Notes under the pieces: generated by a model
Databases searched by the model: none
What the model saw: only the letters and a program-made list of their open reading frames with translations
What the model was told of the DNA's origin: nothing
Shown: positions 40,882 through 40,902 of the stretch, one piece after another
Numbering within the stretch: position 1 is the stretch's first letter
Layout: each line of letters opens with the position of its first letter
Assembly (NCBI RefSeq): GCF_003334765.1
Contig: NZ_QOWT01000011.1
DNA length: 64,000 nucleotides
Strand: one strand, 5' to 3'
Source of the DNA: Escherichia coli
GTDB lineage: Bacteria > Pseudomonadota > Gammaproteobacteria > Enterobacterales > Enterobacteriaceae
Position numbers and translations under genes: made by a program

Positions 40882-40902
<21 letters not shown>
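40459..40902 (+). CDS. yhbP: PNPOx-like FMN-binding-fold protein YhbP
   Basis: ORF track 147 aa. Confidence 0.88.

Follow-up and report, generated by a model that had tools for sequence, protein, structure and literature searches.

Convergent genes share their 3' ends at the yhbP/yhbO junction

The window analysed in this study is a stretch of 64,000 nucleotides from the chromosome of Escherichia coli, within which the genes yhbP and yhbO run towards each other and overlap at their 3' ends (Table 1). Each stop codon of the pair sits within the coding sequence (CDS) of the partner gene on the opposite strand, and thus the two genes form a convergent overlapping pair. The initial annotation had reported a 21-bp overlap between these two named genes in this orientation, and the open reading frame (ORF) coordinates and RefSeq agree with it exactly. 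When RefSeq/PGAP annotates an identical E. coli chromosome, yhbP (3160..3603, + strand) and yhbO (3583..4101, - strand) again overlap by 21 bp, and the 1.3 kb spanning the junction were found in 5425 of 5426 complete genomes, many strains being 100% identical. The annotated start of yhbO is the ATG at 41400 (- strand). Both frames represent real conserved genes, with YhbO matching PDB entry 1OI4 and TIGR01382, and YhbP matching NF002900.

The overlap is codon-in-register, such that every yhbP codon within it exactly complements one yhbO codon. The + strand reads TCA GGC ACC GAG CAG GCG TAA and encodes the YhbP residues S-G-T-E-Q-A before the stop, whereas the - strand reads TTA CGC CTG CTC GGT GCC TGA and encodes YhbO residues 167-172 (L-R-L-L-G-A) before its own stop. 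In this phase (123:321), antisense stop codons can arise solely from the TTA, CTA and TCA codons of the partner gene. A run of seven stop-free antisense codons is trivial, all the more so in this register, and chance suffices to explain the open frames per se. Persistence of the arrangement across loci is not explained by chance.

Table 1. Coordinates of genes, overlaps, stop codons and hairpin candidates at the yhbP/yhbO and yhbS/yhbQ junctions, in window positions.
Feature	Coordinates	Strand	Description and basis
yhbS (hqbA) CDS	39616..40119	+	Convergent partner of yhbQ; ORF list and RefSeq
yhbQ CDS	40106..40408	-	GIY-YIG nuclease; ORF list and RefSeq
yhbS/yhbQ CDS overlap	40106..40119	both	14 bp, phase 123:132
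yhbP CDS	40459..40902	+	147 aa, YhbP/UPF0306 family; ORF list, RefSeq CDS, NCBIfam NF002900
Weak stem candidate	40622..40610	-	5 bp; consensus terminator scan
yhbO CDS	40882..41400	-	172 aa, DJ-1/PfpI-family deglycase; ORF list and RefSeq CDS
yhbP/yhbO convergent CDS overlap	40882..40902	both	21 bp, codon-in-register, phase 123:321
yhbO stop TGA	40882-40884	- (TCA on + strand)	Complement of yhbP Ser142 codon TCA
yhbP stop TAA	40900-40902	+	Complement of rare yhbO Leu167 codon TTA
Stem-loop within yhbO	40940..40956	+	7 bp, 38 nt past yhbP stop, poor U-tract; weak candidate for yhbP 3' end

A second convergent overlap in the same locus

The initial annotation likened this junction to that of yhbS and yhbQ and regarded the locus as tightly packed. 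Both points stand, and the second overlap lies 0.8 kb away. Of 79 loci, 76 share the 14-bp overlap and three, all Citrobacter, have one of 4 bp, and overlaps of 14-22 bp between the same two genes are found in Morganella and other distant Enterobacterales. Neither YhbQ nor YhbS yielded a match in an NCBIfam search at E <= 1e-5, despite their RefSeq names. On its other side, yhbS overlaps the co-directional gene ubiT (yhbT) by 7 bp (ATGCTAA, 39616-39622), which fits published RT-PCR evidence that ubiT and yhbS are co-transcribed as a single transcription unit (PMC10470549).

Convergent CDS overlaps are a familiar class of gene arrangement. Fifty-eight have been counted in E. coli, and a survey that covered 58 genomes assigned 33% of convergent overlaps of 5 nt or longer to phase 123:321 and 49% to phase 123:132 (PMC2174442). 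These convergent phase frequencies are reproduced by a model based on stop-codon mutation and read-through (Lillo & Krakauer 2007, PMC2174442). The gene map of the window contains nine convergent pairs, of which only the two described here overlap, the other seven being separated by gaps of 7 to 185 bp. The smallest of these gaps separates yhbX (+) from argG (-) at approximately 20386-20394, with coordinates carried over from a related locus (L082) on the assumption of colinearity. Given that roughly one in ten convergent pairs overlaps genome-wide, which is itself a rough estimate, the adjacency of two overlaps is mildly notable, but it was recognized post hoc.

The overlap is maintained across Enterobacteriaceae

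A scan for YhbP in species-representative genomes yielded 80 Enterobacteriaceae loci, of which 53 carry an intact convergent yhbO. The overlap measures 21 bp in 38 of these (Escherichia, Salmonella, several Citrobacter, the Klebsiella oxytoca group, Enterobacter, Pseudocitrobacter, Lelliottia and others) and 15 bp in 13 (Kosakonia, Silvania, Pseudescherichia, Leclercia and others), such that orthologous overlaps of one of two lengths occur in 51 of the 53 species-level loci. In the 15-bp genera, the yhbP stop codon appears two codons earlier. A divergent allele from E. coli also retains the 21-bp overlap, and in Enterobacter-type loci the yhbO stop (TAA or TAG) lies opposite the leucine codon of the conserved WLR motif of YhbP. 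The two remaining loci have overlaps of 39 bp, in Klebsiella pneumoniae ATCC 13883 (L081:2880-2960), and 129 bp, in a metagenome-assembled genome (MAG; L036).

Several side observations concern the yhbO gene itself. In K. pneumoniae ATCC 13883, the yhbO stop has changed from TGA to GGC, which adds six codons (..LLGAGITPPV*) and thus produces the 39-bp overlap. Within E. coli, yhbO (40910-41400) falls into allele classes that diverge strongly: 1028 genomes match at only 90-95% identity, a further 1925 genomes lie at 95-99%, and 2365 reach 99% or more. This divergence is far above that of a usual core gene and suggests recombination or introgression at the locus. The yhbO match ends at residue 155 in E. 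coli SCPM-O-B-8794 (L003), and another MAG (L037) carries a yhbO remnant at 54% identity. These two anomalous loci, together with Escherichia sp. MOD1-EC7003 (L004) and L036, look like pseudogenes, frameshifts or assembly problems, and L003, L004 and L037 may be further independent yhbO decays or assembly errors.

A constrained YhbO tail and a free YhbP tail

The two proteins read from the shared bases differ greatly in how they vary. The same overlap bases encode only seven distinct YhbO peptides, mostly the near-invariant LRLLGA or LRILGA, versus 29 distinct YhbP peptides that include SGTEQA, SRPENT, LRAEQA and SGAQ. Column entropies place the variable positions at the third codon positions of yhbO and at the first positions of its leucine codons, and the changes in the YhbP tail, as read from the alignment, mirror these yhbO synonymous sites. 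Moreover, entropy at the variable yhbO positions is approximately 1.2 bits within the overlap and 1.3 bits just outside it, and therefore the YhbP tail adds no visible constraint.

Structural information is consistent with the conservation on the YhbO side. Residues 1-172 of YhbO are identical to those of PDB entry 1OI4, whose structure includes the full tail, and the alignment of YhbO with homologues of known structure from S. aureus and Pyrococcus extends to residue 170. Likewise, NCBIfam model TIGR01382 matches residues 4-171. In the DJ-1/PfpI fold, the YhbO residues encoded by the overlap complete the terminal helix.

YhbP presents a different picture. It matches the NCBIfam equivalog family NF002900 at 267 bits, and a 50%-representative search recovered 740 representative clusters at E <= 0.001. 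Pfam-A yields nothing for YhbP even at E <= 10 and a sequence search of the PDB recovers no relative, and in that respect the protein is structurally uncharacterised. Alignments to distant homologues stop at query residues 138-145, mostly at 140-142, which indicates that the conserved core of YhbP ends at about residue 140-142.

The yhbP stop codon is embedded in a rare leucine codon of yhbO

The yhbP stop complements the codon for Leu167 of YhbO, and in the 15-bp genera it complements the codon for Leu169 instead. One or the other of these two leucines is encoded by TTA or CTA in 52 of the 53 loci, a count which, like the others given here, comes from phylogenetically related loci and is not one of independent events, versus 12% of other yhbO leucine codons. 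The leucine codon that bears the stop has toggled between TTA and CTA (TAA and TAG on the yhbP strand) many times, never leaving the set that provides a stop. Wherever the yhbP stop has moved to Leu169, Leu167 is encoded by CTG or TTG.

If the TAA at 40900-40902 were absent, the next in-frame yhbP stop would be the TGA at 41173-41175, which would yield a protein of 238 aa carrying a 91-residue extension. Metagenome data do contain rare YhbP variants of 238 aa (P0001 and P0004, among the best 120 homologues), and their length is exactly that predicted for loss of the stop. We infer that purifying selection acts against the 238-aa extension.

YhbP ends earlier where yhbO is missing

Natural deletions provide a view of yhbP in the absence of its partner. 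The yhbO gene is missing in 108 of the 5426 complete E. coli genomes, and also in E. albertii, E. whittamii, the C. freundii complex, Kluyvera and Trabulsiella. In enteropathogenic E. coli (EPEC) E2348/69, the one E. coli locus of this kind that was inspected (L084:1360-1830), YhbP is annotated as 140 aa and yraR begins 41 nt later. YhbP in such loci is mostly 140-142 aa long, ending in WQR*, WLRD*, WLRDL* or WLRQE*, although it reaches 146 aa in four Citrobacter loci. Because YhbP ends earlier where yhbO is missing, the last residues of the E. coli protein are best regarded as a dispensable extension read off the antisense strand of yhbO.

The initial annotation held that the overlap would be an annotation artefact if one gene were found to use an earlier stop in other strains. 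Among the 53 loci with yhbO present, neither gene normally ends earlier. The suggestion was apt to the extent that yhbP does stop earlier in loci without yhbO and in the 15-bp genera, but the overlap is no artefact.

The deletion junction of EPEC E2348/69, TGGCAACGGTAACCTATAGTTAAACATGAGT, is identical in E. albertii and E. whittamii (L012 and L006, approximately 2900-2990), and the motif CTATAGTTA is common to EPEC E2348/69 and to yhbO-less loci of the C. freundii complex (L008 and L021, approximately 2900-3000). Kluyvera and Trabulsiella have junctions that differ from that of EPEC E2348/69. The common junction could represent one old allele spread by recombination, or a recurrent endpoint.

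Outgroup arrangements

Outgroups were sought by the 50%-representative search combined with contig look-ups, as the best 120 homologue matches comprise only close relatives. In distant YhbP relatives (40-50% identity), the upstream cluster of yhbS, yhbQ and yhbP is kept and the downstream neighbour varies. For example, yhbP overlaps a convergent nrdG by 20 bp in Morganella morganii (L086:2501-3404) and a convergent RidA-like gene by 4 bp in another contig (L090:2501-3327), and in Rahnella the gene that follows yhbP is co-directional. In an Enterobacterales contig (L091, 2501-3481), yhbP encodes 141 aa and faces a convergent DJ-1/PfpI gene of 173 aa across a spacer of 33 bp. Read on the yhbO strand, this spacer contains a 12-bp hairpin followed by a U-rich tail, AACCUCUUUU, and is a plausible terminator. 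The yhbS/yhbQ overlap is present at 14-22 bp in all of L086, L090 and L091.

From these arrangements, the adjacency of yhbP and yhbO appears to predate the family in which they overlap. The likeliest history is that a short spacer collapsed and a stop codon was then captured, with the direction of change (loss versus gain of the spacer) resting on the single metagenomic contig L091.

Overlapping transcripts and the question of antisense control

Possible antisense interference was also proposed in the initial annotation. Transcript overlap at both junctions has been reported: Table 1 of the ExcludonFinder study (NAR 2025, PMC12288877) contains 165 convergent pairs of E. coli MG1655 that show transcript overlap in no fewer than 50% of the 58 transcriptomes analysed, and both yhbO-yhbP and yhbQ-yhbS are among them. 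The yhbX/argG pair is likewise on this list (PMC12288877). The yhbP/yhbO overlap is thus already known, both from standard annotation and as a catalogued convergent excludon. The proposal is therefore borne out as far as overlapping RNAs are concerned, which are physically unavoidable here, whereas regulation of either gene is unsupported. Our literature search found no experiment on the yhbO-yhbP pair, and no report of expression anticorrelation or RNase III dependence.

One reading of the junction is that of a selected convergent excludon, in which one gene (for example, the stress-induced yhbO) represses the other through collision of RNA polymerases or cleavage of the RNA duplex by RNase III, such that expression is mutually exclusive and the overlap is kept by selection. 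Membership of both pairs in the core 'excludome' of MG1655 across 58 transcriptomes (PMC12288877) is consistent with such a function, as is the retention of the arrangement across many genera. Strict conservation of overlap length would also be expected of a selected antisense element, and in other families yhbP overlaps unrelated convergent neighbours. Furthermore, no canonical intrinsic terminator for either gene was identified near the junction on either strand by consensus scan and cross-species comparison, and read-through into the partner would therefore be expected. However, overlap of transcripts does not equate to regulation, and the synonymous sites of yhbO are about equally free inside and outside the overlap, with no extra constraint at the RNA level. 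Because yhbO has been lost repeatedly while yhbP is retained, yhbP is also independent of its partner. The conservation is fully accounted for once the YhbO helix is constrained and yhbP must keep a stop. We consider selection for an excludon, the leading alternative here, unlikely.

A more elaborate version, which we regard as quite doubtful, would have the yhbS/yhbQ and yhbP/yhbO overlaps form a selected chain of antisense switches that couples the expression of yhbO, yhbQ, yhbS/hqbA and yhbP, with the rare leucine codon of yhbO being retained for two roles, one as the yhbP stop and one within the RNA duplex. If true, such a chain would link a stress deglycase (yhbO), a DNA-damage nuclease (yhbQ), an Hfq-modulating acetyltransferase (yhbS/hqbA) and the uncharacterised yhbP.

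Transcript ends

Because there is no spacer to accommodate a terminator, each transcript must end inside the partner gene, and this probably occurs through Rho or weak hairpins. Complementarity of the complete yhbP and yhbO mRNAs over at least 21 nt would be unavoidable. No G+C-rich hairpin with A- and U-tracts was found between the stop codons, and with no intergenic space the candidates lie within coding sequence and are explained by codons. A spacer hairpin of the kind that serves bidirectional terminators occurs only in L091. An Rfam search of 38500..43000 at E <= 1 revealed no family, and the only match, to CRISPR-DR22 at 39030..39066, is sub-threshold and attributable to chance.

It is nevertheless conceivable that the 21 bp or a downstream hairpin ends both transcripts by acting as a compact bidirectional terminator that lies within coding sequence. 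For approximately 20% of the E. coli genes that take part in convergent overlaps, a rho-independent terminator is predicted within the partner gene (PMC2174442), and the + strand stem-loop listed in Table 1 is followed by a partial T-run and lies in a region (40895-40975) whose predicted fold is more stable than that of shuffled sequences (z = -2.2). The stem is kept in most genera, yet it coincides with the yhbO codons that specify the conserved QLVTSR motif, and the T-tract is not conserved. The - strand candidate is a weak stem that is equally present in lineages without yhbO, and its T-run derives from lysine and glutamate codons of yhbP (EEKTRHAQ) and is not conserved. Downstream of the yhbO stop, the first 90 nt have a predicted fold no more stable than that of shuffled sequences (z = +0.3). 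Neither candidate was accepted as an established terminator, and we judge an embedded bidirectional terminator to be improbable.

The notion that the overlap reflects an artefact of annotation or of the sequence, with one ORF unreal or truly ending earlier, draws on the absence of a Pfam-A match or PDB sequence relative for YhbP and on its unconserved last residues, but it is effectively refuted by the fact that stop codons, unlike starts, leave annotators no choice, by the crystallization of YhbO with this exact C-terminus (1OI4), by the standing of YhbP as an NCBIfam equivalog family with hundreds of representative clusters, and by identical stops in thousands of E. coli genomes and dozens of genera.

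Stop-codon capture as the probable origin of the overlap

The explanation that we favour, and consider very probable, is near-neutral capture of a stop codon after loss of the spacer, stabilised by the constraint on the YhbO helix together with the need for a yhbP stop. With no spacer left between yhbP and the convergent yhbO in Enterobacteriaceae, the yhbP frame would run on over the antisense of the last yhbO codons until it meets the first in-phase stop, which is the complement of a TTA or CTA leucine codon. YhbO is constrained in this pair because its tail completes the DJ-1/PfpI terminal helix, whereas the last four to six residues of YhbP would constitute a passenger peptide that changes as synonymous sites in yhbO drift. 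Two forces are thereby predicted to hold the overlap in place, namely purifying selection on the YhbO tail and selection for a yhbP stop as opposed to the 91-residue extension, and we infer that its stability results from both acting together. As a by-product, neither mRNA would have room for its own terminator, hence the overlap at the RNA level. The shared 3' end looks like an ordinary tail-to-tail product of genome compaction and not like a device.

The significance of this single junction is small. Nonetheless, the comparative picture offers a clean textbook case of a convergent overlap that is held in place, in which one partner is constrained, the other carries a passenger tail, and a leucine codon that is rare in the first gene doubles as the stop of the second. 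Natural deletions of yhbO show that the YhbP tail is dispensable. There is also a practical consequence, in that edits to the 3' end of either gene, such as C-terminal tags or Keio-type deletions, will change the last codons or the stop of the partner. The phenotypes of yhbO and yhbP mutants should therefore be interpreted with the shared 3' end in view.

Comparison with known convergent overlaps and excludons

Like other prokaryotic convergent overlapping pairs (PMC2174442), yhbP and yhbO share a short 3' stretch in a common phase, one of three, and the stop codon is offered by codons of the partner. The overlap differs from most of that class in exceeding the modal length of 4 bp and in being unusually stable across a family. 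Its neighbour, yhbS/yhbQ, resembles it in locus, convergent geometry, conservation and excludon listing, but is 14 bp long, uses the commonest convergent phase (123:132), and has a wider phylogenetic reach.

Among the convergent excludons of MG1655 (PMC12288877; the concept is reviewed in PMC7154746), yhbO-yhbP is itself on the published list. Typical excludons overlap in their untranslated regions, with a mean intergenic distance of 95 nt, whereas yhbO-yhbP overlaps in coding sequence. For the mscL-arfA excludon (PMC10070815), published work has addressed how the antisense overlap affects regulation, whereas yhbO-yhbP is known from transcript overlap alone.
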